A program made the translations under genes and the position numbers. Under the pieces are notes generated by a model. It had not been told where the DNA came from, ran no database searches, and worked only from the letters and a program-made list of their open reading frames with translations. Positions 6,982 to 31,499 of a stretch of 64,000 nucleotides of DNA are shown here, piece by piece. The DNA is from Parabacteroides distasonis. Lineage in GTDB: Bacteria; Bacillota; Clostridia; Lachnospirales; Lachnospiraceae. The stretch is taken from positions 10,839-74,838 of the forward strand of contig CAVAKZ010000003.1 in NCBI GenBank assembly GCA_963589425.1, read 5' to 3'. Positions within the stretch are counted from its first letter, which is position 1. Each line of letters begins with the position of its first letter.

Positions 6982-7009
6982 CTATAGATAATATTGAAAT
7001 TGCAAGTAG

Positions 7010-11293: not shown

Positions 11294-11307
11294 ATAAAAC
11301 GTTTCCA
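11294..11307. promoter_or_regulatory. Second LacI/CcpA-type operator-like site
   Basis: ataaaacgtttcca shares the core aaaacgtttcca with the site at 11238 and lies 56 bp away. Confidence 0.45.
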
Positions 11308-11465
11308 AACAACAAATTCGTGAGAAATAACAAAAATAATGCCTTGTGTTTAGGTAAATATTACAAAAACTAAGAGGGACTTGAACATGTAATGCCTTTA
11401 ATCGTATAATTTAATATAAGTAACATAGGAATATAATTAATGAAAGAGATGGGAGATTTTTGCTT

Positions 11466-12263: not shown

Positions 12264-12269
12264 AAGAGT

Positions 12270-12306
12270 AAAAAGGGACCCCGAGGTTTAGGCCTCGGGG
12301 TTTTTG
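12270..12306. terminator. Bidirectional rho-independent terminator
   Basis: ccccgagg (12279-12286) pairs with cctcgggg (12293-12300). An A-run lies upstream and a T-run (12301-12305) downstream. It sits between convergent genes. Confidence 0.75.
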
Positions 12307-12322
12307 TGGCTTGTTACAAGTT

Positions 12323-16804: not shown

Positions 16805-17683
16805 CTAAATATTGCTTGTAACGTTGGACTGCAAATTTTTCCATCCGGTGGTGATGCCGGCGTTTGTAATGTTGTGGTCCGGAAGAAGGGCTTTTGCTGC
16901 CTTTAACATGGAATCAAGACCACAGGTAAATTCGATTCGATTCAGAGTTTCCCTTCCGGTTAATAGCTGATCGGAGACTGTTTTCATAAGTCGGATCAGG
17001 GCTTTTAGATAATTTTTTTCTATAAAACAAAGTTCCAGGGAATAGATACCTTCCCCTACGCGGTCTACTAAGATGGCTCCTACGATCTGAGAATTAGAGA
17101 CTAAAAGCCTGCTTAAGCTAGGATCCGCAGAGGCATAGTCGGCCCGGCTGGCCACATAGTTGTGATGGCGCTCCCGGTTCTTTATGAAGTACTCTAACTG
17201 CCTGGATTTTGCATATCTAAGAGAAACAATGCTGTCATCGGAGGAAATTTTGGGACCAAGAATTTCAGGCTGGCTGTAGAAGAGGGCTTGCTTTAGCTGG
17301 TCTCTGCTTACAGAGAAAACAGGCTCTACATGGAAATCAATAAAGAAACCTCGGCGCCCTAGCATAGCCATAAGTCTTCTTTCCTGGTCGGTCTCTCCGC
17401 CTAATGCCACCTCCAGATTTTGGGTGCCATTTTTCTTTGCTTCTAAAATAGCTTTGTCAAGAAGCCGGCTTCCAATTCCTTGTTCTTGATATTCCGGAAG
17501 GACGTAAATCCAAGTAAGCCCCCAATTTTTATCTTTTTTCATCAGAATTACGATGCCTACAGCCTCTTCCTCTATCAAACAGGATAGAACAATGCTAGCT
17601 GTGCGAAGACCATGGATGGGGGCCATATTCCTTACCTTAAAATATTCTGATTCTGTAATTTTTCTTATCTTAAATTGATCCAT
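16805..17683 (-). CDS. GNAT-like N-acetyltransferase domain protein with an uncharacterised C-terminal half
   Basis: 'IYVLPEYQEQGIGSRLLDKAILEAKKNG' fits the acetyl-CoA-binding Q/R-x-x-G-x-G/A motif of GNATs. Its stop overlaps the SD of the downstream 1490-aa gene. Confidence 0.6.
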   Translation of the reverse strand: MDQFKIRKITESEYFKVRNMAPIHGLRTASIVLSCLIEEEAVGIVILMKKDKNWGLTWIYVLPEYQEQGIGSRLLDKAILEAKKNGTQNLEVALGGETDQERRLMAMLGRRGFFIDFHVEPVFSVSRDQLKQALFYSQPEILGPKISSDDSIVSLRYAKSRQLEYFIKNRERHHNYVASRADYASADPSLSRLLVSNSQIVGAILVDRVGEGIYSLELCFIEKNYLKALIRLMKTVSDQLLTGRETLNRIEFTCGLDSMLKAAKALLPDHNITNAGITTGWKNLQSNVTSNI

Positions 17684-17737
17684 ATTTAAAATTCCTCATT
17701 GTTTTATACGATGATAATTACATGTCGGTTAACTTGG

Positions 17738-17844: not shown

Positions 17845-19281
17845 ATGAAATTAATCGATCAAATTCCAAAAAAATTTTATAAATTATTTGCAAGTAAATA
17901 TATGGACTACTACCAGCAGTTTCTGGTAGACCTTTATGCGGCTTCAGGAAGGTCTTATTCTCTTTTGGGCTTGACAGAAGCGGAGTGCAAGGCTGTGATG
18001 AATGAGCGGATTGCTGAGACCACCCTGGATTGGGACCAGGAGGCCTACGATGAGGAAGGGGACCTCCTTACCAAAGCCAACATGGCGTCGGTCTGTTTAA
18101 AACACTTAGAGGATTGGGGCTGGCTTAAGCAGGATTATGATGAGTCTTTAAATAGCTATGTGGTATCCTTTCCTGAGTACAGCAGGCAGTTTGTAGAACT
18201 TTTTCGAGAGCTTAGGCTGGAAGATCAAAACAAAGAGCGGGAGAGTATTCTTGCCATTTATAGTTACCTTCATACCTACCACACGGACAAGGAAAAGAAT
18301 GTGGAGATCCTGAGAAGTACCTGGTCCATGTCTAAGGGGCTTTTGCAGCAGTTAGCCGGTATGCAGGAAAGCATGCGGGGATATTTTGATGAGCTGTCTA
18401 AGCAGAAAAGTTTTCTTGGAGTGCAAAAGGTTCTGGTAGAGGAGCTTAATAATACGGATAGCAAGAAATATGCCATTCTTACCACCACAGACAGTTTCTA
18501 TCGCTACAAGGAGGCGGTGAAAGAACTGGTATCTGAGATTCGTATAGAAAATGAAGAGCGCTATGAGGAGCTGTTAGGTAAGAAGGAAGTCTATGAGGCG
18601 TCTAAGAAAGATACTATGGATGCAGCAGAGGAGTATTTGTTTCAGTTAAAGGCTCCCTACTACCGCATGGAAAGGAGTCTTAAAAGGGCCAAGGAGGCCT
18701 CAGAGCTTTTGCTTCGCATCGACCGGGAGTTTGACGCCATTGAGCGAAGATATAATATGCTGATTGAGCAAAAGACTGTATTTGCCGGTCGGGCAGCAGC
18801 TAGAATCCGCTATCTTCTGTCAGAGGGAAATGTGGAAGAAGACCAGACAGTAAGCCTTATAAATCTCATAAACAAAAGCCGGAGAAAAGAAGAAATTTTA
18901 GAAAAACTTGGGGAGAAAATAAGCCTTACCCAAAGGTTTAAATTCTTATCAGAAAAAAGCCTTTATAAGAAGAGAAATACAGACAGGGAGGCCTTTGCAC
19001 CGGAGGCAGTAAGCCTAGAGGAAAAAGAGGAAGCCTTGGACGGCTTTGTATTAAAGCCCCTGTATACCAGGCAGGAGCTTGAAGAGTTTAGAAAGAAAAA
19101 TGAGCAGGATGGAGCTTTCCAGGTGACAGAGGATACGGTAAGGTCTATGGAAGATTTGGAAAAATTATTTTTTGTCTGGCAGGAAGCTACGGAAGTGGCA
19201 GACAGTGAAAATGAAATTGAGATTGGAAAAGACTATGAGAACGCAGAAGGCTTCCGCTTTTCTAAGCTTGTGATTCGATAA
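17845..19281 (+). CDS. jetA: JetA/MksF-like (kleisin-like) subunit of a Wadjet/MksBEF-type SMC complex
   Basis: 478 aa, first gene of a three-gene cassette whose order and sizes (about 480/210/1120 aa) fit jetA-jetB-jetC. Predicted mostly helical. The call is made from context, not from a recognised motif. Confidence 0.5.
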   Translation: MKLIDQIPKKFYKLFASKYMDYYQQFLVDLYAASGRSYSLLGLTEAECKAVMNERIAETTLDWDQEAYDEEGDLLTKANMASVCLKHLEDWGWLKQDYDESLNSYVVSFPEYSRQFVELFRELRLEDQNKERESILAIYSYLHTYHTDKEKNVEILRSTWSMSKGLLQQLAGMQESMRGYFDELSKQKSFLGVQKVLVEELNNTDSKKYAILTTTDSFYRYKEAVKELVSEIRIENEERYEELLGKKEVYEASKKDTMDAAEEYLFQLKAPYYRMERSLKRAKEASELLLRIDREFDAIERRYNMLIEQKTVFAGRAAARIRYLLSEGNVEEDQTVSLINLINKSRRKEEILEKLGEKISLTQRFKFLSEKSLYKKRNTDREAFAPEAVSLEEKEEALDGFVLKPLYTRQELEEFRKKNEQDGAFQVTEDTVRSMEDLEKLFFVWQEATEVADSENEIEIGKDYENAEGFRFSKLVIR

Positions 19282-19300
19282 ACAAGAAGCATAAATAAAA

Positions 19301-19372
19301 GGCGTAATAGATGTGTAGATGGAAGCGTAGATAGATGTGTATATAGATACGTAGATAGAAGCATATGTAAAT
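19301..19372. repeat. Degenerate 12-nt tandem repeat (about 6 units) in the jetA-jetB spacer
   Basis: Units are gcgtaatagatg, tgtagatggaag, cgtagatagatg, tgtatatagata, cgtagatagaag and catatgtaaatg. Consensus is YGTAGATAGAWG. Confidence 0.85.
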
Positions 19373-19393
19373 GCGTAAAAAAGGAGCATATAT

Positions 19394-20026
19394 ATGATGG
19401 AATATATAGAAAGTTTGTCCTTATCTGAGGCAGACAATCTGAAAAAAACCATAGGACGGTTATTTAGGCAAACCTGCATTTTGCAAATGCGCTATGATCC
19501 TGAGACCTTAATTCCCAAGGATAATCCGGACTATGAAACCTGTGTGAGGCATAAGGAGTTTATAGAAGATTACCTGTCCGTACTAGGTTGTGAACTGATC
19601 CATGATCCTCAGGAGCATATTTTTCTCCTAAAAGGGGAGGGAGTGGAACTTGAAAAACTAAGTCTTACCACCACCATTATTTTATTGATCGTAAGAATTC
19701 TTTATAGGGATAAAATTCTTGGGGCAGGGCTGGAGGCCACGGTTACCAATCTGAAAGAAATTAGAAGTTATGGAAGAAATACTGGCCTGCTAAATCGAAA
19801 ACTAACTACAGCAGAGTGGAGAGATGCCCTCTATCTAATGAATCGTCACCAGATTATTGAAGTGCCTGGAGCCGTTAAGGATGTGGAGGATGAGACCCCC
19901 ATTTACCTTTATAGCACCATTAATCTGTATATTAGAAATTCGGACATTGGGGAGCTTATAGAGGAGTATAAGGAGGATGCGGTAAATGAGACAATCGAAG
20001 AAAGTCTTTACCCGGATGGTGATTAA
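19394..20026 (+). CDS. jetB: JetB/MksE-like (DUF4194-like) subunit
   Basis: 210 aa. 'FIEDYLSVLGCELIHDPQEHIFLLKGEG' resembles the conserved DUF4194 segment (x-Y-F-x-x-x-G-L-E-L-x-x-D-x-x-x-G-x-x-F-L). It is followed by a hydrophobic helix and overlaps the next gene by 41 nt. Confidence 0.6.
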   Translation: MMEYIESLSLSEADNLKKTIGRLFRQTCILQMRYDPETLIPKDNPDYETCVRHKEFIEDYLSVLGCELIHDPQEHIFLLKGEGVELEKLSLTTTIILLIVRILYRDKILGAGLEATVTNLKEIRSYGRNTGLLNRKLTTAEWRDALYLMNRHQIIEVPGAVKDVEDETPIYLYSTINLYIRNSDIGELIEEYKEDAVNETIEESLYPDGD

Positions 20027-23000
20027 TAACTGGGGAGGAATTAGTCATAAGCTCATGGAATTTCATGAGTACGTGAACCTTTTCAGTGGCAAGAGTGGTT
20101 CGGGAAAGTCCACGGTTATGGATGCCTTGCAGGTGGTTTTGTATGGAAGTACCAAGGCCACCTTTTTAAATAAAGCGGCAGATGATGCCAAGAACAGACG
20201 AAGCGTCTTTAGTTATCTTAGGGGAGCCCAGAAGGATGGCAGTGCCAACCGTCAGGGCATGGACTTTTGTTCCCAACTGGTCCTGGAAATTTGGGATACA
20301 GGAAGTGACACCTATACCTGTATCGGAGTCACCTTTCAGGTAGGAAAGCAGGACAGGGAACTTTCCGATGCCAAATATTCTTTCTTTAGCCACTCCGGAA
20401 AGATCCCGGAAGATGAATATCTAGATGTTAACGGAAGACCATATACTCTGGCAAACATCCAAAAGCTTATTAAAGAGCGGGGAAATTCTCTGGATAATAA
20501 AGGTCGGGGCGAGGTGAACAAGGTCTATCTTACCAACAGAGATTACCTGGGCACTCTCTATGAGCTGGTCTTAGGTCATATGGATCCCGGCCGCTTTATC
20601 ACTATGGAAAAAAGTGCGATTGCTCTTCGCATGAGCAACGGTACCGGTCAGTTTATTAAAGATTACATGTTTCCAAGAAGCAAGGAAGATACCGTCTCTA
20701 CCATCAGTGATCAGTTGGGAGCCTACCGGGAGATTAAGGAGAAGGTGGAAGATTTAGAGCACAGAATCGACCTTCTTTCGGAGGTAAAGCTTGAAAACCA
20801 AGCCCTTATGGAAGCCCAGGCAGACAAGCTTCGGACAGAAGCCCTTCTGCGGATTCTTGATATAGAAGGAACTAAGGCAAGGCTTGCAAGTAAGAAGGGG
20901 CAGAGAGAAAGCATTTTGGATAAGATTGCAGAACTGGAAAAAAAGCAGGAAATTTTGGACCAGGAGAAAAATGCTAAATCTGAGGACCTGATCGAGGTGA
21001 AGGCGGAACTGCAATCCAGTGATTTTGGTGCTAAGAAAAAGGAATTGGAAAATTTAGAGCGCACCATTTCCCAGGCCAAGATTAATGCCGGCCAGTGGAA
21101 GGAGATTTTGGAAGGCCTTGAAAAATGGACCACTGATGAGGAGATAGGCGGCTATATAAGCAATCCAACTCTTCAGGCTATGGAAGATTTGCTTGAGGGC
21201 CAGGTTACAGAAGAAGCTATTGATAAAATTAAAAAAGGCCTTGCCCTTGCCATGGAAAGTATTGAGGAAGAACTTTCGGATTTAGGAGTAAATATTCGGG
21301 AAAAGACCAAAGACTTAAAGGAAAAGAAGGAGATGGTGGAAGATCTAAAAAACGATCGAAAGCCATACAAAAAAGAATTAAAAAGCGCCAGGGTAGAGCT
21401 TCAAAGAGAGCTGTCTAACCGCTATGGCCGCAGCATACCGGTGCACATTTTTGGAGATCTTTTTGATATTACCGATGAGAAGTGGAAGAATGCCATTGAG
21501 GGGCGATTAGGAAGATTAAAGCATAGTCTTATTACAGAACCTAGATATGCCTTAGATGCAGCAGGGGTCTTTCGCTCTATGAAGCGGCGGGAGTATGAAG
21601 AAATTGACCTTATTAACACGGCGGCTATTTTAAGAGAACAGCCAGAGGCTAATGAAGGGACTCTTTATGAGGCGGTAAGCACCAAGGAAGCCTATGTGGA
21701 CCAGTGCCTAAAACGTTATCTTGGAAGAATAAAAAAATGCGACAGCATAGAGGACCTTCATGAGGTCAGGGAAGGCGTTACCGCAGATTGTTATTCCTAC
21801 AGTAATTATATTTTCAGGCACCTAAGGGAAGTGGATTATACCCGTTATGCCTGCATTGGCACCAGGGTTTCCAGGGGAAAGCTTCAGGAAGTAGAAGACG
21901 AGATTATGGACCTTGAGACTAGCCTTCTTTCGGACAACCAAGGCAAAGCCCTTTTAAGCGGTGCAAAAAAAATGGAACAGCTACGGCAAAGCACCAAGAC
22001 TCTCTTGGAACTGGCATCTGCATCAGAGTCTCTGGATGAATACTTAAAGCAGGAGGAAAAAATCAAGGCAGAGATAAAAGAACTCCAGGAGGGAGTAAGA
22101 ACCAAAGAGCTTCATAAGAAGCGGGAAAAATTAGAAGGAGAGCTTTCCCGTCTTGGAGGAGACATAAATAAAGTGCAGAGAAGCCTAGTTAGGGAATCTG
22201 AAAATAAGGGTCGGGTGGAAAAAGAAGAAAGAGAATTAAAGGATCGCCTAGCCTACCTAAAGGAAGGTCAGGCAGAAAATCCAGAGCTTCAAAAAGAAGT
22301 GGAAGAGAGCCTAAAAAATCTTAATGAACAGACCTACCGAGCTGGGTTAAACAAAAAACTGGAGACCCTATCTAAGAAGGAAGAGACTGCCTTAGAAAAA
22401 CGAAACACAGCCAGAATTCATTTTAACAATGAATACCCAAGTTACGGTTACAGCGGCTTAGAGCATGATAACGTCAGATATGATAAGCTCCTTTCCCAGT
22501 ATCAAAAAGACTTTGAGCCCCAGTATAAGGAGGAGTTTGAAAAGCAATATAAGCTGGTCTATCACTCTCTTAGGGAAAATGTCATTGCCACTATTCACGG
22601 GGAGATTAAGGCAGCCTACCGCCATAGAAAAGAAATTAATCGGATGCTGTCGAAAATTCGATTCTCCGACAGTACCTATCAGATTGATATTTTGCCGGCA
22701 GAAAATGAAAACGGCCAGTTCTACGACATGTTAATGGCGGAGGAGTTAGACAGTAAGGTCTTGGACGATGATGGATTTGAAGGCCAGCTTAGTTTAGGAG
22801 AAGATCTTTTCTATCAAAAATATGAAAAACAGATTGGTCTTTTAACAGAAAAATTCATGCCTCCAAGGGAGGAAGATGGAGAGAGACGAAGGCTCCACAA
22901 AGAAGAAATGGAGAAATATGCGGACTATCGAAATTATTTGACCTTCAGCATGTATGAGCGGGTGGAAGATGAATTTGGAAATGTAAAGAAAAATTCTGTA

Positions 23001-23345
23001 GACGATATGGCAGGCAGAGATTCCGGAGGAGAGGGACAAAATCCAAAATACGTGGCCCTATTGGCAGGCTTTGCCATGTTATACATGAACCAGGGCAGTG
23101 GAGATTCCAAGATCCGACTAGTGCTTTTAGATGAAGCCTTTTCTAAAATGGACAAGGAGCGAAGTGAGGTGTGTCTAAGATATGCCAGAGAATTGGACTT
23201 GCAGCTTATTGTATGTGTGCCGGATGAGCGTTTGCAATCCTTGATTCGAAATGTCGACAGTGTCTATGGATTCCGCCGTCATAAGAACCAGATTTCCATG
23301 ATGCATATTGACAAGGGCAGCTATCTGGAGATGATGGAGGGATAA
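19986..23345 (+). CDS. jetC: JetC/MksB-like SMC-family ATPase
   Basis: N-terminal 'VINNWGG...LFSGKSGSGKSTVMDAL' (P-loop head). About 700 aa of K/E/L-rich coiled coil with a central non-coil hinge-like segment. C-terminal 'SGGEGQ' signature-like motif and 'LVLLDEAFSKMD' Walker B. SD aggagg lies 7 nt upstream of ATG 19986. Confidence 0.75.
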   Translation: MRQSKKVFTRMVINNWGGISHKLMEFHEYVNLFSGKSGSGKSTVMDALQVVLYGSTKATFLNKAADDAKNRRSVFSYLRGAQKDGSANRQGMDFCSQLVLEIWDTGSDTYTCIGVTFQVGKQDRELSDAKYSFFSHSGKIPEDEYLDVNGRPYTLANIQKLIKERGNSLDNKGRGEVNKVYLTNRDYLGTLYELVLGHMDPGRFITMEKSAIALRMSNGTGQFIKDYMFPRSKEDTVSTISDQLGAYREIKEKVEDLEHRIDLLSEVKLENQALMEAQADKLRTEALLRILDIEGTKARLASKKGQRESILDKIAELEKKQEILDQEKNAKSEDLIEVKAELQSSDFGAKKKELENLERTISQAKINAGQWKEILEGLEKWTTDEEIGGYISNPTLQAMEDLLEGQVTEEAIDKIKKGLALAMESIEEELSDLGVNIREKTKDLKEKKEMVEDLKNDRKPYKKELKSARVELQRELSNRYGRSIPVHIFGDLFDITDEKWKNAIEGRLGRLKHSLITEPRYALDAAGVFRSMKRREYEEIDLINTAAILREQPEANEGTLYEAVSTKEAYVDQCLKRYLGRIKKCDSIEDLHEVREGVTADCYSYSNYIFRHLREVDYTRYACIGTRVSRGKLQEVEDEIMDLETSLLSDNQGKALLSGAKKMEQLRQSTKTLLELASASESLDEYLKQEEKIKAEIKELQEGVRTKELHKKREKLEGELSRLGGDINKVQRSLVRESENKGRVEKEERELKDRLAYLKEGQAENPELQKEVEESLKNLNEQTYRAGLNKKLETLSKKEETALEKRNTARIHFNNEYPSYGYSGLEHDNVRYDKLLSQYQKDFEPQYKEEFEKQYKLVYHSLRENVIATIHGEIKAAYRHRKEINRMLSKIRFSDSTYQIDILPAENENGQFYDMLMAEELDSKVLDDDGFEGQLSLGEDLFYQKYEKQIGLLTEKFMPPREEDGERRRLHKEEMEKYADYRNYLTFSMYERVEDEFGNVKKNSVDDMAGRDSGGEGQNPKYVALLAGFAMLYMNQGSGDSKIRLVLLDEAFSKMDKERSEVCLRYARELDLQLIVCVPDERLQSLIRNVDSVYGFRRHKNQISMMHIDKGSYLEMMEG

Positions 23346-23406
23346 AAAGCCCCCTGGTTTTTGGGACTTTCCTACAAAAGAAAAAATAGAATTGAGAGAA
23401 AGCTTG

Positions 23407-23435
23407 TTGAAATATTCTGAATGAATATCTATAAT
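23407..23435 (+). promoter_or_regulatory. Candidate sigma-A promoter for the parA-like unit
   Basis: TTGAAA, 17-nt spacer, TATAAT. tgaatgaa occurs twice (about 23418 and 23445) around it. Confidence 0.5.
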
Positions 23436-23471
23436 GGAGATAGTTGAATGAACAAAGCAAGGAGGTATCCC

Positions 23472-24263
23472 ATGGGAAAGACCATCACCATGTGTTTTAC
23501 CAACAATAAAGGAGGAAGCGGTAAGTCCACTACCTGTTCTAATTTAGGAGCAGCCCTAGCAAGAGCCGGAAAGAAAGTGCTCTTGGTGGACGGGGATATG
23601 CAGTTGAATCTTTCTCTATCATTTTTTCCTCAGGACTGGGTCTTAGAGCAGGCAGCAGGCGAGAAGAACCTCTACCGGGCTATTGGAAAGCAGGCAGATC
23701 TTACCGGCTATATTGTACATACCCCTTATGAGAATCTGGATCTGATTCCCTCTTCTACCCTAATGAGTTCCATTGAGTACGAGCTATTTACCAAGTGGCA
23801 GAGAGAATTCATTTTGAGAAAATGTTTAAAAAAGGTGAAAGAATCAGGCGCCTATGATTATATTCTCATTGATGCACCGCCAACCCTAGGAGGATGGGTG
23901 ATGAACATCCTATGTGCTTCCGACAAGGTCTTGATTCCGGTGGAGGCAAGTCCCTGGGGCATGTTTGGTTTGGCCAATATGGTTGATTTTCTCAATGAGG
24001 TGCAGCAGATTTCCCCAGACTTATCAGTGGCAGGAATCGTGGTAACCAAGGCAGACACTAGGAAGAATTATTTTAAACAGACTTTGGAAACATTACATGA
24101 TTTGGAAGATATTTACGTATTTGATTCCATTATTCGAGTAGACAGCTCTGTGGAATGGGCCCAGGACAACAGCGCTCCCGTAGTGGAATACAAAAAATCC
24201 AGCAGAAGTGCAAAGGAATACATAAGTTTAGCAGAGGAGGTAATGGAACATGTCGGTAGGTAA
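23472..24263 (+). CDS. ParA/Soj-family ATPase
   Basis: Deviant Walker A 'NNKGGSGKST', plus 'LLVDGDMQ' and 'YILIDAPP'. Start at ATG 23472 with SD aaggagg. Confidence 0.88.
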   Translation: MGKTITMCFTNNKGGSGKSTTCSNLGAALARAGKKVLLVDGDMQLNLSLSFFPQDWVLEQAAGEKNLYRAIGKQADLTGYIVHTPYENLDLIPSSTLMSSIEYELFTKWQREFILRKCLKKVKESGAYDYILIDAPPTLGGWVMNILCASDKVLIPVEASPWGMFGLANMVDFLNEVQQISPDLSVAGIVVTKADTRKNYFKQTLETLHDLEDIYVFDSIIRVDSSVEWAQDNSAPVVEYKKSSRSAKEYISLAEEVMEHVGR

Positions 24264-24504
24264 GGATAGCTTAAAGAGGGCAGCCAGCGCAACAGCTGCG
24301 AAAGAAACAAAGACGACGGCTACAAAAACAGCCGGTAAAAAGCCGGTAGCCAAGAAGGCAGAGACTAAGCTTGAGAATCAATCAGAGAATAAAGAGGTAA
24401 CAGCAGTGGTGAATACCGGAACCAGCAAGGAAGTAAAGGACATGTTTGTGCCGGAGGAGAGAGTCAGCCATGTAAGGGAAGAACTTCCGGTATATTTGTT
24501 GTAG
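24250..24504 (+). CDS. 84-aa Lys/Ala/Thr-rich, probably disordered protein (candidate ParA partner)
   Basis: SD gaggagg lies upstream and the start overlaps the parA stop by 14 nt. The N-terminus 'SLKRAASATAAKETKTTATKTAGKKPVAKKAETK' is basic and low complexity. The C-terminus is 'VSHVREELPVYLL'. No recognisable DNA-binding fold. Confidence 0.55.
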   Translation: MSVGKDSLKRAASATAAKETKTTATKTAGKKPVAKKAETKLENQSENKEVTAVVNTGTSKEVKDMFVPEERVSHVREELPVYLL

Positions 24505-24563: not shown

Positions 24564-25247
24564 ATGAAATACGAAATTAAAGGCGACACATTACCTGTAG
24601 TTATCTGTCAGTTAGAAGACGGAGAGAAGATCATTACAGAAGGAGGCGGCATGTCCTGGATGTCTCCCAACATGGTAATGGAGACTACTACCAACGGTGG
24701 CATTGGCAAGGCATTTGGAAGAATGTTCTCCGGAGAGAAGATGTTCCAGAATGTATATACAGCAACTAATGGAAATGGAATGATTGCATTTGCATCTTGC
24801 TTCCCCGGAGTCATCAAGGCTTTTGATATTGCTCCCGGAAGAGAGATCATCCTTCAGAAAAAAGGCTATTTGGCAGGAGAGCCAGGTGTAAGTCTTTCTG
24901 TACATTTTAATAAGAAAATCAGTTCCGGATTCTTCGGTGGTGAGGGATTTGTTTTGCAGAAGGTTAGCGGACAGGGACTGGTTTTTGCAGAGTTTGATGG
25001 GCATGTGGAGGAATATAATCTTCAGCCCGGCCAGCAGATTGTGGTGGATACGGGACATCTTGCAGCTATGGATGCTACTTGCCAGATGGAGATCCAGACA
25101 GTTCCTGGGGTAAAGAATATCCTGTTTGGAGGCGAGGGTCTCTTTAATACAGTGATTTCAGGACCGGGCAGGGTATGGCTTCAGACAATGCCGCTTCAGA
25201 ATCTGGCAGCAGAGATCAGTAACTATATTCCTCAGAAGTCAAATTAA
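24564..25247 (+). CDS. AIM24 / TIGR00266-family protein
   Basis: 'MKYEIKGDTLPVVICQLEDGEKIITEGGGMSWM', 'FGGEGFVLQKVSGQGLVF' and 'GGEGLFNTVISGPGRVWLQ' fit the repeated GGEG pattern of this family. Start at ATG 24564 with SD aaaggag. Confidence 0.8.
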   Translation: MKYEIKGDTLPVVICQLEDGEKIITEGGGMSWMSPNMVMETTTNGGIGKAFGRMFSGEKMFQNVYTATNGNGMIAFASCFPGVIKAFDIAPGREIILQKKGYLAGEPGVSLSVHFNKKISSGFFGGEGFVLQKVSGQGLVFAEFDGHVEEYNLQPGQQIVVDTGHLAAMDATCQMEIQTVPGVKNILFGGEGLFNTVISGPGRVWLQTMPLQNLAAEISNYIPQKSN

Positions 25248-25324: not shown

Positions 25325-25353
25325 TTGAATATTAAGGGGCTTCTGGATATAAT
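25325..25353 (+). promoter_or_regulatory. Candidate sigma-A promoter for the peptide/sigma/exporter operon
   Basis: TTGAAT, 17-nt spacer, TATAAT, located 37 nt upstream of ATG 25390. Confidence 0.5.
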
Positions 25354-25389
25354 AAGGAGAAAAGCAAAAGTTAGAAAGGGGTGCGGATT

Positions 25390-25608
25390 ATGAGTGGAAA
25401 ATTACAACAATTATTTGATTTACAGCATTTTGCAGAGAATAAGAAATTGCAGTCCTTAATCGATGATACCATGAGCAGATATGGAGCTGGATCCACAGGA
25501 AGAATGGAGCTTGAGGAAGATGATCTTGATATGCTTTTTGCGGCAGGAGATTCCCATATGGTTGGCAGAGGCAGCAATTTATTTGGAAAAGATGAGGAGA
25601 GTATATAA
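25390..25608 (+). CDS. 72-aa peptide with a double-glycine-type leader-like segment (candidate exported peptide precursor)
   Basis: SD gaaagggg lies upstream. 'MELEEDDLDMLFAAG|DSHM' resembles the L-x-x-x-E-L-x-x-[IVL]-x-G-[GA] leader end cleaved by C39 exporters. The N-terminus 'MSGKLQQLFDLQHFAENKKLQSLI' is loosely Nif11-leader-like. The stop TAA shares one nt with the sigma gene ATG. Confidence 0.5.
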   Translation: MSGKLQQLFDLQHFAENKKLQSLIDDTMSRYGAGSTGRMELEEDDLDMLFAAGDSHMVGRGSNLFGKDEESI

Positions 25609-26120
25609 TGCAGACAGTTACTGCGGAGACTATTTACAGAGATTACTATAAAAAGATTTGTGGATTTGTATATAAGAAAGTAGGAGACTCCAATGCGGCG
25701 GAGGATCTGGTGTCGGATATTTTTTTAAAGATCACAGCCAATATTGATCGGTTTGACCCGGAGAAGGCAGCGGTTTCTACTTGGGTATATACTATAGCCA
25801 ACAACACAGTGCTGGATTATTATCGTACCCGGAAGGTTCACGGACAGCTTCCGGAGGACAATGGAGAGAACGGAGCCTTGCCGGATAGTTTGGTAGAGTC
25901 TAAGGGCTTGGATGCAGGTCTTTTGGAGGAAGAACAACTGGAGGAACTGGCAGATGCCTTAGCAAAACTGCCTGAGCGGTCCAGAGATATTATTATACTT
26001 CATTACTATGGGAATATGACCTTGAAGGAAGTTGCCTTTAAGATGGGAATGTCCTATGCCAATATTAAGATTGTGCACAAGAAGGCTATCCAGGAATTAA
26101 AAAGGCTAATGACAGAATAA
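25608..26120 (+). CDS. ECF-like sigma-70 family RNA polymerase sigma factor
   Basis: Region 2 'AEDLVSDIFLKI...FDPEKAAVSTWVYTIANNTVLDYYR'. Region 4 HTH 'IIILHYYGNMTLKEVAFKMGMSYANIKIVHKKAIQELK'. Length is 170 aa. Confidence 0.88.
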   Translation: MQTVTAETIYRDYYKKICGFVYKKVGDSNAAEDLVSDIFLKITANIDRFDPEKAAVSTWVYTIANNTVLDYYRTRKVHGQLPEDNGENGALPDSLVESKGLDAGLLEEEQLEELADALAKLPERSRDIIILHYYGNMTLKEVAFKMGMSYANIKIVHKKAIQELKRLMTE

Positions 26121-26132: not shown

Positions 26133-26618
26133 ATGTCGGAAGAAAAAGGGACATCTTTGTTTCGTAAAAAAAGCGAGGAATATATTGATTCCCCGGAGAA
26201 ACTTGACCACTATCTTCACGTTACGAATCCAGGGATATGGGCACTGCTTTTGGCAGTGCTCCTGTTGTTCATAGGATTTGTTGCATGGAGTTTTATGGCA
26301 AGATTGGAAACCCATGTGGCAGTGGCGGTGGTTTCGGAAAATGATACTTGTACGGCCTATGTGCCGGCCAAGGCCTTGGATGCAGTGGTGAAGGCCAGAA
26401 CCGTGACCCTTAATGATCGGGAGTATTCTTTATCTCCTGATTCTCCAAAACCGGAGACGGTTACAGATGAAACCAATATTTATATTCGTCTGGCAGCAGA
26501 CTTGTCCATAGGGGATGTGGTATATGCGATCCCTATGGATGGAGATTTGAAAAATGGAGTCTACAGTGGAGTAGTTGCTACGGAGACCTTGTCTCCCATT
26601 TCCTTGCTGTTAGATTAA
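26133..26618 (+). CDS. Short single-TM HlyD-like accessory protein (NHLM-type secretion protein N-terminus, truncated form)
   Basis: 'LFRKKSEEYIDSPEKLDHYLHVTNPGIWALLLAVLLLFIGF' matches the typical N-terminus and TM of bacteriocin-exporter HlyD partners. At only 161 aa it lacks the long coiled-coil hairpin. Confidence 0.55.
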   Translation: MSEEKGTSLFRKKSEEYIDSPEKLDHYLHVTNPGIWALLLAVLLLFIGFVAWSFMARLETHVAVAVVSENDTCTAYVPAKALDAVVKARTVTLNDREYSLSPDSPKPETVTDETNIYIRLAADLSIGDVVYAIPMDGDLKNGVYSGVVATETLSPISLLLD

Positions 26619-26627: not shown

Positions 26628-28805
26628 ATGTCTATGAGAAAGAAAAAAATGAATCAACCCCTAAGCAAGGGCGTGGCAAGGGTTCCGGTGATTATGCAGC
26701 TGGAGATGCTGGAGTGCGGTGCGGCCTGTTTTGCCATGATTATGGGATATTATGGGAAATGGATTACTCTGGAGCAGGCAAGGATTGACTGTGGAGTGTC
26801 CAGAGACGGGTCCAGTGCGAAAAATATTATGCGGGCAGCAAAAGGCTATGGTATGGAAGTGCATGCTTACAAACTGGAGCCGGAAGCCCTTTTCAAAGAG
26901 GGCCCTTTTCCCTGTATGATTCACTGGGGATTTAACCATTTTGTGGTACTTGATGGCTTCCATGGAAATAAGGCCGTGCTTAATGACCCGGCAAGAGGCC
27001 GGATTGTGGTATCCTGGGAGGAGTTCGATAGGGAATTTACAGGAGTCTGCATGACCATGGCACCAGGGCCTGACTTTGTGCCGGAGGGGGCCAGAAAGAA
27101 TGTTTGGAAATATGCCGGAGAACGTATAAAAGGAACGGGAAGCTCTACGATATTTGTGGCCTTAACTACGGTGATTATTGCCTTTTTAGGAATCCTACAA
27201 CCTATATTTAATCAGATTTTTTTGGATCGTTTGCTTACAGGAACCAATAAAGACTGGCTTTTTGGATTTCTTGTGGTTCTGGGAGTTTATTCGGGAGTCC
27301 TGGTGCTAATGAGCTGGATCAATGCGATTTATGGATTAAAGATTCAGGGAAAGATTTCCGCTGTGGGGAATTCTTCCTATTTGTGGAAAATCCTGCGGCT
27401 TCCCATGCAATTTTTTGATCAGCGACTTCCCAGAGACTTGGTGGAGAGGCAAAGTACCAATGCTTCCATTGCAGGAGACTTGGTTAACACCTTTGGCCCT
27501 CTGGTGATCAATAGCTGGATGATGGTATTCTATCTGGTGCTGATGCTAAGAAGAAGCCTTTTTCTTACCCTGATTGGAGTGGGCTCACTAGCTATCAACT
27601 TGCTGGTATCAGGTTGGATTACCCAAAGACGAGTAAATATACAGCGAGTCCAGATGAGAGATCAAAGTAAATTTTCCAGTGCAGTTGTCACCGGAATTGA
27701 TATGATCGAGACCATAAAGGCCAGCGGTGTGGAAAAAGGATATTTCGCCAGACTTTCTGGATATCAGGCCAGCGTTAATGAGGGAGAAACCAGATTTGCA
27801 AAATTTAACCAGTGGCTGGAGATTATTCCCAGACTTTGTGGAGCCCTAGCTAACCTTGCAGTTTTAGGTTATGGAATGGACCTGGTCATAAACGGAGAAA
27901 TGACCCTTGGTATGATTATGGCTTTTCAAGGCTTTTTAAATGCTTTTACAGCTCCCGCAACTTCTATGGTATCTGCAGGCCAGTCTCTCCAGGAAATGTT
28001 GACCCAGATGGAACGAGTAGACGATGTTATGAATTATGAAAATGACGCCTGGTTTCAGGAGCGGGAAATTATAGACCGACAGGAGAAATTAAGTGGTCAA
28101 ATAGAGCTAAAAAATGTTACTTTTGGATATTCAAGGTTTGCAGCTCCCGTTATTGAAAACTTTTCCATGAAGGTAAAAGCCGGGGAAAAGATTGCCATTG
28201 TGGGAGCTTCAGGCTGTGGAAAATCAACCCTGGTAAAACTTCTCACCGGCCTTAGTAAGGCCTGGTCCGGAGAGATTTTATTTGACGGAATTGAGATTTC
28301 GAAAATGGACAGAGATATATTTACAGCCTCTGTATCGGTGGTAGACCAGGAAGTAATTCTTTTTGACGATACCATTGCCAACAACATTTCCATGTGGGAT
28401 GACACTATGGAGGATGGGGATATTATAGCAGCTGCCAAGGACGCTCAGATTCATGAGGACATCCGAAAGGCAGGGGGCTATCAAAATAAGATCCAAGAAG
28501 AGGGTAGGGACCTGTCAGGAGGCCAAAGGCAGAGACTTGAGATTGCAAGAGCCTTGGCCAAGAACCCCTCCATCTGCATTCTGGATGAGGCTACTTCAGC
28601 TTTAGATGCCAAGACAGAATATGATGTGGTAAATGCTATAAGTAAAAGAGGAATCACTTGTATTGTGGTTGCCCACCGCCTGTCCACTATCAGGGATTGT
28701 GATGAGATCATTGTCTTGGATCAGGGGCAGATTGTAGAGTCTGGTACCCATGATGAATTAATGAAACTTGATGGATTTTATAAATTGCTGATTACAAACG
28801 ACTAG
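26628..28805 (+). CDS. Peptidase-C39-domain ABC exporter (PCAT, peptidase/ATP-binding)
   Basis: C39 motifs 'QLEMLECGAAC' (Cys), 'GFNHFVVL' (His) and 'LNDP'. Six-TM exporter core. Walker A 'GASGCGKST', signature 'LSGGQRQR', Walker B 'ILDEATSALD'. Confidence 0.9.
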   Translation: MSMRKKKMNQPLSKGVARVPVIMQLEMLECGAACFAMIMGYYGKWITLEQARIDCGVSRDGSSAKNIMRAAKGYGMEVHAYKLEPEALFKEGPFPCMIHWGFNHFVVLDGFHGNKAVLNDPARGRIVVSWEEFDREFTGVCMTMAPGPDFVPEGARKNVWKYAGERIKGTGSSTIFVALTTVIIAFLGILQPIFNQIFLDRLLTGTNKDWLFGFLVVLGVYSGVLVLMSWINAIYGLKIQGKISAVGNSSYLWKILRLPMQFFDQRLPRDLVERQSTNASIAGDLVNTFGPLVINSWMMVFYLVLMLRRSLFLTLIGVGSLAINLLVSGWITQRRVNIQRVQMRDQSKFSSAVVTGIDMIETIKASGVEKGYFARLSGYQASVNEGETRFAKFNQWLEIIPRLCGALANLAVLGYGMDLVINGEMTLGMIMAFQGFLNAFTAPATSMVSAGQSLQEMLTQMERVDDVMNYENDAWFQEREIIDRQEKLSGQIELKNVTFGYSRFAAPVIENFSMKVKAGEKIAIVGASGCGKSTLVKLLTGLSKAWSGEILFDGIEISKMDRDIFTASVSVVDQEVILFDDTIANNISMWDDTMEDGDIIAAAKDAQIHEDIRKAGGYQNKIQEEGRDLSGGQRQRLEIARALAKNPSICILDEATSALDAKTEYDVVNAISKRGITCIVVAHRLSTIRDCDEIIVLDQGQIVESGTHDELMKLDGFYKLLITND

Positions 28806-28820: not shown

Positions 28821-30998
28821 GTGGAAGGATTTAACCGGCAAATTGAAAATCGAAAAAAACACGAAAATGAGCTCCTTACAGAAGCCTTTCAGGACATTTC
28901 TAAGGCCGTTGCCCATAAGAAAATTTCCCAGGAATTATTTCAGGAGGGAAAGGATACTAAGGATGCGGTATCCCAGCTTTTGAGACATTACGGAATCAGA
29001 GAAAAGGAGGTCCCTAAGAGTTTAAAAAGCTTAGAGGATCGATTGGACTTCCTTCTTTCCTCTGCAGGAGTCTACTATCGTCCTATCCGTTTGGAGGAAG
29101 GATGGCAAAAAGATGCCATGGGGGTCATGATGAGCAGCATGAAAGAAGATGGCGCAGTCATTACCATTCTTCCCTGGGAGGGGGGAGGCTTTTACTATGT
29201 AAATCCCCATACAGGAAAGCGCACCAGAATAGATAAGACGGAGGCTGCCAAAATCGGCCAGGAGGGCTATTGCTTTTACCGGGCCCTTCCCATGCGGAAA
29301 TTAAGAGCTTATGATATTTGGAATTATATGAGAGAGTGTCTGACAGCCTGGGATATTTTAAGCTTCACTACAGTGACAGGAATTGTTACCCTGGTAGGCT
29401 TGCTTCTTCCAAAACTTAGCAAGCTTCTTACCGGCACAGTCTTGGATTTTGAAAGTGAACAGCTCCTTCTTGCAGTGATGGTCTTTATGGCTTGCACATC
29501 CTTTAGTTATATTCTCTTTGAGTCTATGAAGGATATCTTAGTGAAGCGCATGAGTACCAAACTGACACAGCACTTGATTACCGCTACAATGATGCGGGTA
29601 ATATCTCTTCCGGTGGAATTTTTTAAAAATTATTCTACAGGTGAACTCAATCAATATCTTGCCTACATGTCCAGCATTTGCAATACAGCGATTAAGGGAT
29701 TTTTTGCCACAGGAATAACAGGTTTATTTTCCCTTGTATTCCTGGTTCAGGTATTTACCTTTGCAAAACCTTTGGTGATTCCTTCCTTGATTGTGACAGC
29801 ATTTACCTTGATTGTCAGTGCTCTTACAGGAATTACACAGTCCGCTATTAGTAGAGAACAAATGCAGATGGCTGCCAAGGAAAAGGGTCTGGTGTATTCC
29901 CTTATTAAGGGGATTAGGAAGATCCGACTGGCAGGGGCTGAAAAAAGAGCCTTTGTAAATTGGGCTCACAGCTATGCCAGGGAGGCAGAACTTCAGTACG
30001 ATCCTCCGGCCCAGATTAAGTTAAGTAAGGTATTTACTACAGCTATTTCTTTGGGAGGAACTATAGCAGTTTATATTGTAGCAGTGAGAAGCCAGGTGAC
30101 GGTGTCGGATTATTATGCCTTTACTATATCCTATGCCTTCGTATCTGTGGCCTTATTGTCTATGGCAAATGTTGCCGCAAAGGTGGCGACGATCCGACCT
30201 ACCATGGATTTGATTCGCCCTCTGATGGAAGCGGTTCCTGAGGAGGGAGAGGACTTAGAGACCGTTACAGAACTTCAGGGAGAAATTGAGGTAGATAGTG
30301 TTAGCTTCCGATATGAAGCGGATGCGCCTCTGATTTTGGAAGATTTATCTATAAAGATTCCGGCAGGCCAGTATGTGGCTATTGTAGGAAAAACCGGATG
30401 CGGAAAGTCCACCCTTCTCCGCTTGCTTTTGGGATTTGAGACCCCAACCAAGGGAAGTATTTATTACGATAAAAAAGATTCCAGAGGATTGGACATGCGG
30501 TCTGTAAGAAAACAGATCGGAACCGTTATGCAGGATGGAAAGTTGTTTCAGGGAAGTATTTACGAAAATATTTCCATAGGAGCTCCGGGCCTTTCTATGG
30601 ACCAAGTTTGGGAAGCGGCTGAGATGGCCGGGATTGCAGAAGATATCAGGCGGATGCCTATGGGCATGCATACCATTATTGCAGGAACCGGAGGAAGTAT
30701 GTCCGGAGGCCAAAAACAGCGCCTTATGATAGCAAGAGCAGTGGCTCCAAAGCCCAAAATCCTCTTTTTAGATGAGGCAACATCCGCCCTAGATAACATA
30801 ACCCAAAAGAGGGTGTCGAAGTCTTTAGACAAATTAAATTGCACTAGAATCGTGGTGGCTCATAGACTTTCCACCATCCGTCATTGCGACCGAATCCTGG
30901 TGCTGGATCAGGGGAAGATTATAGAGGATGGAAGCTACTGGGAGCTTATGGAGAAGCAGGGGTTTTTTGCTGAGTTAGTTGAGAGGCAGCGACTTTGA
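28821..30998 (+). CDS. ABC exporter with a degenerate (Cys-less) C39-like N-terminal domain
   Basis: The N-terminal ~160 aa occupies the C39 position but has no catalytic Cys motif. 'GKTGCGKST', 'MSGGQKQR', 'LFLDEATSALD'. GTG start with SD aaaggag. Confidence 0.85.
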   Translation: MEGFNRQIENRKKHENELLTEAFQDISKAVAHKKISQELFQEGKDTKDAVSQLLRHYGIREKEVPKSLKSLEDRLDFLLSSAGVYYRPIRLEEGWQKDAMGVMMSSMKEDGAVITILPWEGGGFYYVNPHTGKRTRIDKTEAAKIGQEGYCFYRALPMRKLRAYDIWNYMRECLTAWDILSFTTVTGIVTLVGLLLPKLSKLLTGTVLDFESEQLLLAVMVFMACTSFSYILFESMKDILVKRMSTKLTQHLITATMMRVISLPVEFFKNYSTGELNQYLAYMSSICNTAIKGFFATGITGLFSLVFLVQVFTFAKPLVIPSLIVTAFTLIVSALTGITQSAISREQMQMAAKEKGLVYSLIKGIRKIRLAGAEKRAFVNWAHSYAREAELQYDPPAQIKLSKVFTTAISLGGTIAVYIVAVRSQVTVSDYYAFTISYAFVSVALLSMANVAAKVATIRPTMDLIRPLMEAVPEEGEDLETVTELQGEIEVDSVSFRYEADAPLILEDLSIKIPAGQYVAIVGKTGCGKSTLLRLLLGFETPTKGSIYYDKKDSRGLDMRSVRKQIGTVMQDGKLFQGSIYENISIGAPGLSMDQVWEAAEMAGIAEDIRRMPMGMHTIIAGTGGSMSGGQKQRLMIARAVAPKPKILFLDEATSALDNITQKRVSKSLDKLNCTRIVVAHRLSTIRHCDRILVLDQGKIIEDGSYWELMEKQGFFAELVERQRL

Positions 30999-31011
30999 CG
31001 TCGAGGGAGGA

Positions 31012-31455
31012 TGCACCGCAGGGACGGACGCATACGAGGGGATGAGATATACCGTCAAAATGGACTGCGTTTCCTGCTCGCTGCAGGCGCCGAGCCACTC
31101 CGGCTCCAGCGCAACTCGCCCAAAAAGCGGGCTCAAACAAGCGCTCGCCTTCGTTGCTAGCCTGCAGCTCCCTACGGAAGCATATACAAAAGCCCCCAGT
31201 AGTGGTTGCTACTGGGGGCTTCTTGTTTAGGATATTTTCTGAAGCAAACAGCAAAGCTGGGAGCGAGACATGTTCTTCGCAAACAATTGCGAGGCTTCCG
31301 TAGGGACTTGCACGCTAGCAGCGAAGGCGGGCGCTTGTTTGAGCCACCCTGTTTTTGGGGTGGCGAGTTGCGCCTAGAGCCTTCGCGAATCAGCGCGTGC
31401 AAGGAGCAGGAAACGTAGCATGTTTGCGAAGAACATGTCTCGCTCCCTGCGGTGC
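31012..31455. repeat. GC-rich nested inverted-repeat element filling a convergent intergenic region
   Basis: Arm A (31012-31181) and arm B (31294-31455) are reverse complements at roughly 75% identity. Examples are tgcaccgcaggga/tccctgcggtgc and ctcaaacaagcgc...tccctacggaagc/gcttccgtaggga...gcgcttgtttgag. A third partial copy at 31258-31286 is complementary to 31421-31448. Confidence 0.85.
31191..31228. terminator. Bidirectional-looking terminator hairpin at the centre of the inverted-repeat element
   Basis: agcccccagtag (31191-31202) pairs with ctactgggggct (31210-31221). caaaa lies before it and tcttgttt after it. Confidence 0.6.
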
Positions 31456-31499
31456 GTCCGTTTTTAGACAATTGCCAGGCTCCCCTGTAATGCGTCCGT

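Follow-up and report, generated by a model that had tools for sequence, protein, structure and literature searches.

The small gene studied here lies in a window of 64,000 nt (contig CAVAKZ010000003.1, positions 10,839 to 74,838, of assembly GCA_963589425.1, Parabacteroides distasonis). It is an ORF of 72 aa running from an ATG at 25390 to a TAA stop at 25606-25608 (25390..25608, plus strand), with an SD (GAAAGGGGTG) about 8 nt upstream of the start codon. A GTG at 25381 is not the start: all homologues begin at the ATG-equivalent position, with MSxKLQQLF. Farther upstream, at 25325..25353 (plus strand), is a sigma-70-type promoter-like site, TTGAAT-17-TATAAT (10 of 12 matches), which is conserved in close relatives (the related loci designated here L006, L010, and L011).

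The last A of the stop codon (25608) is also the first base of the ATG of a 170-aa sigma factor gene (25608..26120, plus strand; TAATG), whose own SD (GAGGAG) lies inside the last codons of the small ORF (junction at 25594..25610, plus strand). The sigma factor is of the ECF type (group 4), with sigma-2 and sigma-4 domains only (PF04542 and PF04545/PF08281; Sigma70_r2, 4.1e-19; Sigma70_r4, 1.2e-12), and matches TIGR02937 at 2.2e-32 (111.9 bits against a cutoff of 42.9). It fits no named family with a known partner (SigW, SigM, SigV, SigX, BldN, and others): every specific NCBIfam sigma model scores far below its cutoff, the best being the BldN family at 104 bits against 206, with SigW at 65 against 243.

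Next comes a 161-aa single-pass membrane protein (26133..26618, plus strand), probably a miniature HlyD-like accessory subunit of the exporter: it has a weak N-terminal match to TIGR03794 (E 0.005), limited to the first 45 or so residues of the 421-residue model. It was considered as a possible anti-sigma factor, but in rearranged loci (L029, L033, L035, and L036) its homologues sit immediately upstream of the first ABC gene and away from the sigma gene, making this unlikely. Two ABC proteins, apparently of the NHLP type, follow. The first (ABC1; 26628..28805, plus strand), which begins about 1 kb downstream of the small ORF, is a C39-peptidase ABC exporter (PCAT, NHLM ABC1 type; TIGR03796, 856.8 bits against a cutoff of 853.3; Peptidase_C39, 7.4e-34), whose N-terminal 160 aa match LahT150 (PDB 6mpz) at 5e-61, with the catalytic residues intact (Cys30, His104, and Asp120 aligned). 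The second (ABC2; 28821..30998, plus strand) is the peptidase-less partner, of the NHLM ABC2 type although TIGR03797 scores just below its cutoff (679 bits against 709.4), with no Pfam domain detected in its N-terminal 180 aa. An Rfam search of the whole window returned nothing.

The observation on which this analysis was based, a small ORF with a double-glycine-type leader end coupled to a sigma gene and followed by an exporter, is confirmed, and the C-terminal sequence originally given for it is exact. Two details differ: only one of the two ABC proteins, not both, carries a C39 peptidase, and the most likely scissile bond is Ala52|Gly53 (AA|G) rather than after AAG.

An unannotated protein family and its predicted cleavage register

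The ORF is far more than a chance reading frame. A profile search found 705 representative clusters (50% identity) at E<=1e-3, all of 48-135 aa and with the same architecture, and without a Pfam, NCBIfam, or source name. In the window protein, aa 1-32 are predicted to form a two-helix hairpin, aa 40-52 a C39 recognition helix, and aa 53-72 a disordered tail starting at G53 (GDSHMVGRGSNLFGKDEESI); the AF2 model (pLDDT 71.8) has helices at 2-15, 18-31, and 43-46. Nearly invariant residues lie in the hairpin (L8, F9, D10, Q12, N17, L20, I24, and R30) and in A51-A52-G53, while the tail is variable. Alignment of homologues, which had been proposed beforehand as a test, thus bears out a conserved leader and a variable tail.

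The leader-end motif (ELEEDDLDMLFAA, coding region 25507..25545, plus strand) places the predicted C39 cleavage site after Ala52, with L41 at -12, L46 at -7, L49 at -4, and A51-A52 at -2/-1. Over 253 members, with cleavage after Ala-Ala, -12 is L/I in 86%, -7 is L/M/V/I in 83%, and -4 is V/L/I in 95%. These are the positions required by LahT150 (PMC6363468), which is the closest solved protease. Cleavage after AAG was rejected for the main family, since it puts Asn at -4 and breaks the -7 and -12 pattern, although a minority subfamily does fit an AAG| or GG| register.

The residues at the site itself are not those of a canonical double-glycine leader. Ala-Ala-Gly is found in 253 of 260 members, while all 39 bona fide cargo leaders in the same loci end in Gly-Gly; documented C39 sites are GG, GA, and GS, and Ala-Ala is not among them, so that the peptide might be cleaved poorly or not at all. 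This leaves room for an uncleaved adaptor or decoy, which would bind the C39 domain, or the N-terminal domain of the peptidase-less ABC2, without being processed, and either tether the sigma factor to the idle exporter or compete with cargo, until cargo binding displaced it and so changed sigma activity. Retention of the docking residues at -4, -7, and -12, the uncharacterized N-terminal domain of ABC2, and the tight coupling of peptide and sigma factor are consistent with this. However, the near-invariant Gly at +1, the preferred [DE]-P after it, and a tail that is always present (at least 10 aa) suggest a real scissile site and a threaded cargo, and the catalytic residues of the peptidase are intact; such a role, like any binding, is hypothetical, and we consider it unlikely.

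A loose resemblance of the N-terminus to Nif11/NHLP leaders, part of the original prediction, is not supported. None of 14 close members matches an NCBIfam model (including TIGR03798 and TIGR03793) at E<=10, and the Pfam Nif11 model (PF07862) is not among the 25 families listed for 126 members at E<=1; as a positive control, TIGR03798 detects the true Nif11 cargo of the related locus L027 at 2.4e-7. Nor is there similarity to a known anti-sigma family (zf-HC2/ZAS, RskA, NepR, FlgM, or RsbW-type). The window peptide has no Pfam or NCBIfam hit, no anti-sigma family is among the 25 Pfam families listed for the 126 members, and a Foldseek search of the peptide model against the PDB gave no match. 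A PDB profile search gave only a weak match to Hha/YmoA (E 0.018) over the acidic ELSDDELEL..AA stretch, judged to be compositional. Literature searches found no description of a GG-type peptide paired with a sigma factor, and the ECF reclassification paper gave no matching group in its main text.

Association with the sigma gene, cargo, and promoters

Peptide, sigma factor, and exporter form a conserved unit found in many different genomic contexts, but the peptide follows the sigma gene rather than the exporter. The two genes are adjacent in 13 of 15 distinct architectures, and in 22 of 23 distinct loci the sigma start lies -11 to +4 nt from the peptide stop, with the sigma SD inside the tail codons; co-transcription and translational coupling are thereby shown by sequence in these loci. 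Most related loci also have a C39-peptidase ABC transporter, but the pair persists without an exporter within 8 kb in L021 and L028, and it sits inside radical-SAM/Nif11 clusters in L026, L027, and L032.

These features make it very unlikely that the peptide is ordinary exported cargo, such as a small unmodified bacteriocin whose gene merely sits next to the regulator of the cluster. The leader motif, the adjacent exporter, and its being the only GG-type ORF in the window would fit such a role. However, it is single-copy, and its leader differs from that of the cargo in the same loci (in L034 about 25 cargo genes share a different leader); its tail is short, acidic, disordered, and in most members Cys-free; it stays with the sigma gene where no exporter is within 8 kb; and there is no immunity gene. 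It was also considered as a substrate of the radical SAM/PqqD enzymes of related loci, but the window peptide, like most members, has no Cys, those loci have their own Cys-rich precursors, and the window lacks the enzymes.

A secreted autoinducer, in which the exported 20-residue tail would accumulate outside the cell and feed back on the sigma factor through an unidentified sensor, was the first of two mechanisms originally proposed. In its favor, the peptide has a GG-type leader next to a PCAT, as ComC and BlpC do, the tails vary between lineages in the way pherotypes do, and some loci have membrane sensors nearby (a SpoIIE protein with a 5TM domain in L034, and an MCP in L030). Against it, no histidine kinase and response regulator, or cytoplasmic receptor, is encoded in the window cassette, and no receptor, histidine kinase, or membrane anti-sigma factor is conserved with the pair across related loci. 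The tails (median 19 aa) are of low complexity, rich in G/K/D/E/N, and constrained at their ends at the nucleotide level by the embedded sigma SD, and look disposable. Nor would this model explain the strong conservation of the N-terminal hairpin, the systematic AA in the regulator versus GG in cargo, or the persistence of the peptide with the sigma gene where no exporter is near. It seems an unlikely alternative.

In related loci, a promoter motif of ECF-like form, TTAGCC-N16-CGTATAAA, precedes peptide-sigma operons, Cys-rich precursors, and GG cargo genes in independent loci, as well as an orphan copy of the peptide (L013) in a genome that also holds a cassette of the window type (L012). The promoter of the window cassette itself lacks the CGTATAAA-type -10 element, and autoregulation by its own sigma factor was rejected because the CGT-type -10 element is missing. 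There is one candidate promoter for this sigma family in the window, TTAACC-N16-CGTATAAA (17703..17732, minus strand), 7.7 kb away and about 20 nt upstream of the SD and ATG of a GNAT acetyltransferase gene (16805-17683, minus strand), which is followed by a 1490-aa ORF (GNAT/1490-aa operon at 12.3-17.7 kb). It exactly matches the motif derived from unrelated loci and is the only exact match in the window (shuffles give 0.73 matches at the loose criteria); it is conserved in L006-L012, but those are close relatives.

A possible exporter-gated regulator and its known counterparts

Our preferred explanation, which remains tentative, is that the small ORF encodes a regulatory partner of the adjacent sigma factor that is also a substrate of the neighboring PCAT. 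Its first element, that peptide and sigma factor are made in fixed ratio from overlapping genes, is shown by the sequence; the rest is inferred, including binding to the sigma factor, cleavage by the C39 domain, and export. The conserved two-helix N-terminus would bind the sigma factor and hold it inactive, in the manner of the small anti-sigma factors NepR and CnrY. The following helix, L-x4-L-x2-L-x-A-A, would dock in the C39 domain (inferred from the motif and from homology to LahT150), which would cut after Ala-Ala, the exporter taking away the short disordered tail. The cut would inactivate the inhibitor, most attractively by exposing a C-terminal x-Ala-Ala end of the kind ClpX recognizes on cleaved RseA or RsdA (PMC10202637; 10.1101/491043), and the freed sigma factor would transcribe promoters of the type TTAGCC-N16-CGTATAAA. 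Since co-resident cargo peptides carry canonical Gly-Gly sites, a regulator carrying Ala-Ala would report how free or active the exporter is, matching cargo synthesis to export capacity. The cassette in the window would be a minimal version (regulator, sigma factor, and exporter), with no cargo or maturase found within 64 kb, driven by a housekeeping-type promoter.

The original interpretation is therefore partly supported: of its two mechanisms, a sigma modulator acting until it is processed or exported is favored over an autoinducing peptide, though neither is demonstrated. Several arguments weigh against our own version. After PCAT cleavage the conserved N-terminal part would stay in the cytoplasm, so that release of the sigma factor needs a further step, such as degradation, which is pure inference; in the subfamily fitting an AAG| or GG| register, no Ala-Ala end would be left. 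Inhibitor before sigma is an atypical gene order. Several related loci also carry SpoIIE, HATPase_c_2, and STAS partner-switching genes, which could be the real sigma regulators. The peptide has no similarity to any known anti-sigma family, Ala-Ala is not a documented C39 site, and in this window the cassette has a sigma-70-like promoter and no cargo was found.

It is also conceivable, though unlikely, that the peptide is a positive partner of the sigma factor (a chaperone, stabilizer, or co-factor), with exporter-mediated processing turning the sigma factor off. The peptide gene lies upstream of the sigma gene and is translationally coupled to it, two-subunit or assisted sigma factors exist in Firmicutes (SigO-RsoA; cited in PMC7826278, reference 58), and RsbW-like proteins that could serve as the true inhibitor are present in some loci. 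On sequence grounds, however, the sigma factor has complete sigma-2 and sigma-4 domains and needs no extra subunit, and orphan peptide copies behind sigma-type promoters (L013) look like negative feedback.

In its fullest form, which is not excluded but is rather doubtful, this reading would make the family a widespread, unannotated class of exporter-gated anti-sigma factors in Clostridia: soluble mini-proteins whose leader-like helix is cut at a dedicated Ala-Ala|Gly site by the C39 peptidase of a bacteriocin-type ABC exporter, unmasking an ssrA-like Ala-Ala degron, so that ECF sigma activity, and with it synthesis of RiPP or bacteriocin cargo, is set by the free capacity of the exporter. It would be the first sigma/anti-sigma switch operated by an ABC peptide exporter, and would assign a new, intracellular regulatory role to double-glycine-type processing. 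PCATs are the last step of bacteriocin, RiPP, and pheromone maturation, and how producers match toxic precursor synthesis to export capacity is poorly understood; this family would provide a direct and genetically compact answer, and would add a large unannotated group to the catalogue of ECF sigma regulators. The promoter motif is a practical handle for finding regulons and for activating silent peptide clusters in gut Lachnospiraceae and related Clostridia, and the Ala-Ala versus Gly-Gly dichotomy makes a sharp, cheap experimental prediction about C39 specificity and ClpXP dependence. Should the regulatory model be wrong, the family would still be a new, very common class of PCAT-associated small proteins that genome annotation currently misses.

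The elements of the model have precedents: FlgM-like secretion coupling, proteolytic anti-sigma release, and double-glycine-leader export. In the FlgM/sigma-28 flagellar checkpoint (FlgM secretion is discussed in PMC6551532), and with ExsE in type III secretion, a small, largely disordered inhibitor is encoded with its sigma factor, and its removal through a dedicated export machine couples transcription to secretion competence. Here the machine is an ABC exporter with a C39 peptidase rather than a type III apparatus, the sigma factor is of the ECF type, the inhibitor would be cut with only its tail exported, and there is no sequence or fold relationship to FlgM. In regulated proteolysis of the ECF anti-sigma factors RseA, RsiW, and RsdA, an upstream cut creates a cytoplasmic fragment ending in x-Ala-Ala, which ClpX recognizes, and the sigma factor is then released (PMC10202637; 10.1101/491043). 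Cleavage at the Ala-Ala|Gly site of the family would leave exactly such an end, but the known cases are membrane proteins cut by site-1 and site-2 proteases, while the protein here is soluble and about 70 aa long, and its proposed protease is the C39 domain of an exporter.

Double-glycine leader peptides and their PCAT exporters (ComC/ComAB, BlpC, and LahA/LahT; PMC6363468, PMC10885120) share the amphipathic leader end with hydrophobic residues at -4, -7, and -12 and the adjacent C39-ABC exporter. In the present family the site is Ala-Ala, the conserved part is a 30-residue hairpin unrelated to ComC or Nif11 leaders, the "core" is a short low-complexity tail, there is no cognate kinase or response regulator, and the gene is fused in expression to a sigma gene. 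NHLP/Nif11 bacteriocin systems, with their three-gene export set (TIGR03794/03796/03797; reportedly Haft, 2010), have paired ABC exporters apparently of the same type, and related loci contain true Nif11-leader precursors and radical SAM maturases; however, the small protein is not detected by the Nif11 or NHLP models, the HlyD component is reduced to 161 aa, and the window has no precursor or maturase.

NepR and CnrY, short two-helix (class II) anti-sigma factors, are similar in size and have a pair of helices, as predicted here, that could clamp an ECF sigma factor. No sequence similarity to them was detected, and their release mechanisms (a PhyR partner switch, and metal sensing through CnrX) are unrelated to proteolysis by an exporter. 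Finally, the cluster-situated ECF/anti-sigma pairs of lantibiotic clusters, MibX/MibW and PspX/PspW, also involve an ECF sigma factor dedicated to a RiPP or bacteriocin cluster, with feed-forward control; those anti-sigma factors are membrane proteins thought to sense the mature product, while here the partner is itself shaped like an exporter substrate.

The cassette and its small ORF

The 72-aa ORF of the window runs from an ATG at 25390 to a TAA at 25606-25608, with a purine-rich SD and a promoter-like site, TTGAAT-17-TATAAT, at 25325-25353. The last A of its stop codon is the A of the ATG of a 170-aa protein with Sigma70_r2 and Sigma70_r4 domains, which makes the latter an ECF-type sigma factor; among the models searched it reaches only the generic TIGR02937 cutoff, and none of the named subfamilies. 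Three more genes follow, separated by gaps of 9-15 nt: a 161-aa single-pass membrane protein, whose N-terminus weakly matches the start of the NHLP HlyD model; a 725-aa ABC exporter with a C39 peptidase (ABC1; TIGR03796, 856.8 bits, above cutoff); and a second 725-aa ABC exporter without a peptidase (ABC2; TIGR03797, 679 bits, just below cutoff). The original prediction, of a small peptide gene overlapping a sigma gene with two C39 exporters downstream, therefore describes the locus correctly, except that only one of the two exporters carries C39. This C39 domain is a close homologue of LahT150, the structurally characterized double-glycine protease of a Lachnospiraceae PCAT (5e-61, with Cys30, His104, and Asp120 aligned).

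Two further features flank the cassette. Immediately after the ABC2 stop codon (31009-31460) is a GC-rich, near-perfect palindrome of about 450 nt, with a predicted RNA fold energy of -295 kcal/mol (z = -17) and nested inverted repeats; copies about 80% identical, in places two, sit at the same position in L006-L009 and L012 (L numbers designate the related loci collected for comparison). It has no hit in Rfam or in a plasmid collection; a terminator, an insulator, or a MITE-like element are possibilities. On the other side (17845-24504), JetA-, JetB-, and JetC-like (Wadjet/condensin-type) genes are followed not by a JetD-like gene but by a ParA-like ATPase (23448-24263) and an overlapping 84-aa basic protein (24250-24504), with an AIM24-family gene next (24564-25247); these domain names are taken from homologous loci and from the domain search of the window.

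The small ORF is a real, widespread, and unnamed gene. A word-indexed search found 13 close homologues, almost invariant over their first 53 residues and variable over the remainder. A profile search against 1.84 billion representatives found 705 clusters at E<=1e-3, all of them small proteins with the same plan: M-x-x-K-L-x-x-L-F-D-[YF]-Q-[RK]-F-x-x-N-x-x-L-x-x-[IL]-I-x-D-T-x-S-R-Y, then a short linker, then E-L-S-D-D-[DE]-L-E-x-V-x-A-A-G-[DE]-P, then a polar tail. No Pfam or NCBIfam model covers the family, and no source database gives it a name. The Nif11 and NHLP models, which the original prediction had loosely invoked for the N-terminus, do not detect it, although the Nif11 model does detect genuine Nif11 cargo in a related locus. 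An AlphaFold2 model built with 126 homologues predicts a two-helix hairpin (residues 2-15 and 18-31), a short helix in the leader-end motif, and a disordered tail (mean pLDDT 71.8).

The putative C39 site

The cleavage register was examined by placing the cut after the two alanines, with Gly at +1. In this register, across 253 members, position -4 is V/L/I in 95%, -7 is L/M/V/I in 83%, and -12 is L/I in 86%; in the window these residues are L49, L46, and L41. These are the three positions that sit in hydrophobic pockets of LahT150, where mutating them abolishes cleavage (PMC6363468; PMC10885120). A register with the cut after AAG instead puts Asn at -4 and loses the pattern. There is, however, a subfamily (members P0041, P0093, P0108, P0117, P0119, P0129, and P0144) in which the tail after the cleavage motif is a CxxC...CxxC zinc ribbon and the leader end fits an AAG| or GG| register.

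AAG is present in 253 of 260 sequences, while documented C39 sites are GG, GA, and GS. It remains possible that Ala-Ala cannot be cleaved at all, which would support an alternative in which the peptide is a decoy or adaptor. In the same loci, all 39 bona fide cargo peptides have leaders ending in GG, while the family peptides of those loci end in AA; this systematic difference is the most striking fact about the family, and needs a functional explanation.

Genomic context and a candidate promoter motif

Thirty-six related loci were collected and mapped. The five-gene cassette of the window recurs in many unrelated flanking contexts, but where the order is rearranged the peptide stays with the sigma gene, and the 161-aa protein with ABC1: L029, L033, and L035 have the order 157aa-ABC1-ABC2-peptide-sigma, and L036 has Nif11-peptide-sigma-...-157aa-ABC1-ABC2. 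The peptide-sigma pair occurs with no exporter within 8 kb in L021 and L028, and lies inside radical-SAM/Nif11 clusters in L026, L027, and L032. In L034 it sits beside an array (4258-13180 of that locus) of about 25 tandem small genes, which share one GG leader (MKTKEELNALKEEVETLNKKLAEL..E[LM]..V.GG), different from that of the peptide, and have hypervariable cores of 14-110 aa, with a glycosyltransferase gene near the downstream end; this is a large polymorphic secreted-peptide locus. SpoIIE-type phosphatase and HATPase_c_2 (RsbW-like) genes, with STAS genes in L034, lie next to the exporter/peptide/sigma module in L029, L033, L034, and L035; these may regulate the sigma factor, suggesting an extra partner-switching layer of control in some lineages.

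Many close relatives of the window carry a PqqD protein, a radical SAM/SPASM maturase, Cys-rich precursors, and a 77-98-aa GG-leader protein just upstream of the peptide. In L014-L024, these conserved GG-leader proteins (for example MSEKIALNEMELDDVQGG|LLKFSGGNMIMTYTHNDG...) and the Cys-rich precursors of about 50 aa (MKFTKPEM..FDAEDIIVTSGS|C...) match no Pfam or NCBIfam family, and the best hit of the neighboring maturase is TIGR04463, below its cutoff. The window lacks all of these: no cargo or maturase is present, and the small ORF is the only GG-type ORF in its 64 kb.

In 22 of 23 distinct loci the sigma start codon lies within -11 to +4 nt of the peptide stop, and the sigma SD lies inside the last five or so codons of the tail. 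The two proteins are therefore made in fixed ratio, and the G/D/E/K-rich tail end is partly a nucleotide-level constraint. The nature of the tails, together with the absence of any receptor conserved in the related loci, weakens the model in which the peptide is a pheromone, one of the two originally proposed, but does not exclude it. On balance the original interpretation is supported only in part.

A shared motif lies upstream of the peptide gene in independent loci (L001, L013, L029, L033/35, and L034), with the consensus aTTAgCC-N16(17)-CGTATA[AT]A, an ECF-like promoter with the typical CGT at -10. The same motif precedes Cys-rich precursor genes (L015, L017, L020, and L024) and GG-cargo genes (L020, L023, several in the L034 array, the Nif11 gene of L036, and a 76-aa gene in L030). 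This fits a cluster-situated sigma factor driving both its own operon and the cargo genes, although it is inferred from motif positions only. An orphan copy of the peptide (L013) sits behind this motif in a genome that also has a window-type cassette (L012), the arrangement that negative feedback by an inhibitor would be expected to produce.

The window cassette itself does not have the motif; its promoter is housekeeping-like. The only exact match in the window, TTAACC-N16-CGTATAAA, lies at 17732-17703 on the minus strand, just upstream of a GNAT acetyltransferase gene (16805-17683, minus strand) followed by a 1490-aa Lys/Glu-rich ORF with no Pfam domain (12323-16795, minus strand). Shuffled windows give 0.73 matches even at looser criteria, and conservation of the site in L006-L012 is not independent evidence, because these loci are close relatives. 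The two genes may be regulon members.

A possible mechanism and its precedents

The sequences themselves establish co-translation of the peptide with the sigma factor, a C39-type docking helix, an intact C39 exporter next door, single-copy status distinct from cargo, and a tail that looks disposable. The remaining steps are inferences: that the hairpin binds and inhibits the sigma factor, for which short two-helix anti-sigma factors such as NepR and CnrY are precedents; that the C39 domain cuts after Ala52 and the tail is exported; and that inhibition is then lost. One argument against such a role is that the peptide resembles no known anti-sigma family in the Pfam, PDB profile, and Foldseek searches made here.

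In PCATs the leader stays in the cytoplasm, so that a further step would be required. The Ala-Ala|Gly site offers one: the cleaved inhibitor would end in x-Ala-Ala-COOH (NAA in 60% of members, and FAA in the window), which is the ssrA-like signal by which ClpX recognizes anti-sigma fragments such as RseA and RsdA, once an upstream protease has exposed it (PMC10202637; 10.1101/491043). Alternatively or additionally, Ala-Ala may simply make the regulator a slower substrate than GG cargo, to be processed only when the exporter is not saturated. Either way, the sigma factor would read out exporter activity. That the peptide is a PCAT-recognized partner of the sigma factor seems likely; the full inhibitor-release model is more tentative, and its ClpXP degron detail is doubtful.

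The combination of a leader-bearing mini-protein, co-translated with a sigma factor and apparently gated by a bacteriocin exporter, with a dedicated Ala-Ala|Gly site, is not described in Pfam, in NCBIfam, or in the literature that could be searched. The parts themselves are of known kinds: an ECF sigma factor, a GG-type leader, and an NHLP-type PCAT. Each logical element likewise has a precedent, in the proteolysis that exposes an Ala-Ala degron (RseA, RsiW, and RsdA) and in the secretion-coupled anti-sigma release of FlgM, whose logic would here be transferred to an ABC peptide exporter.
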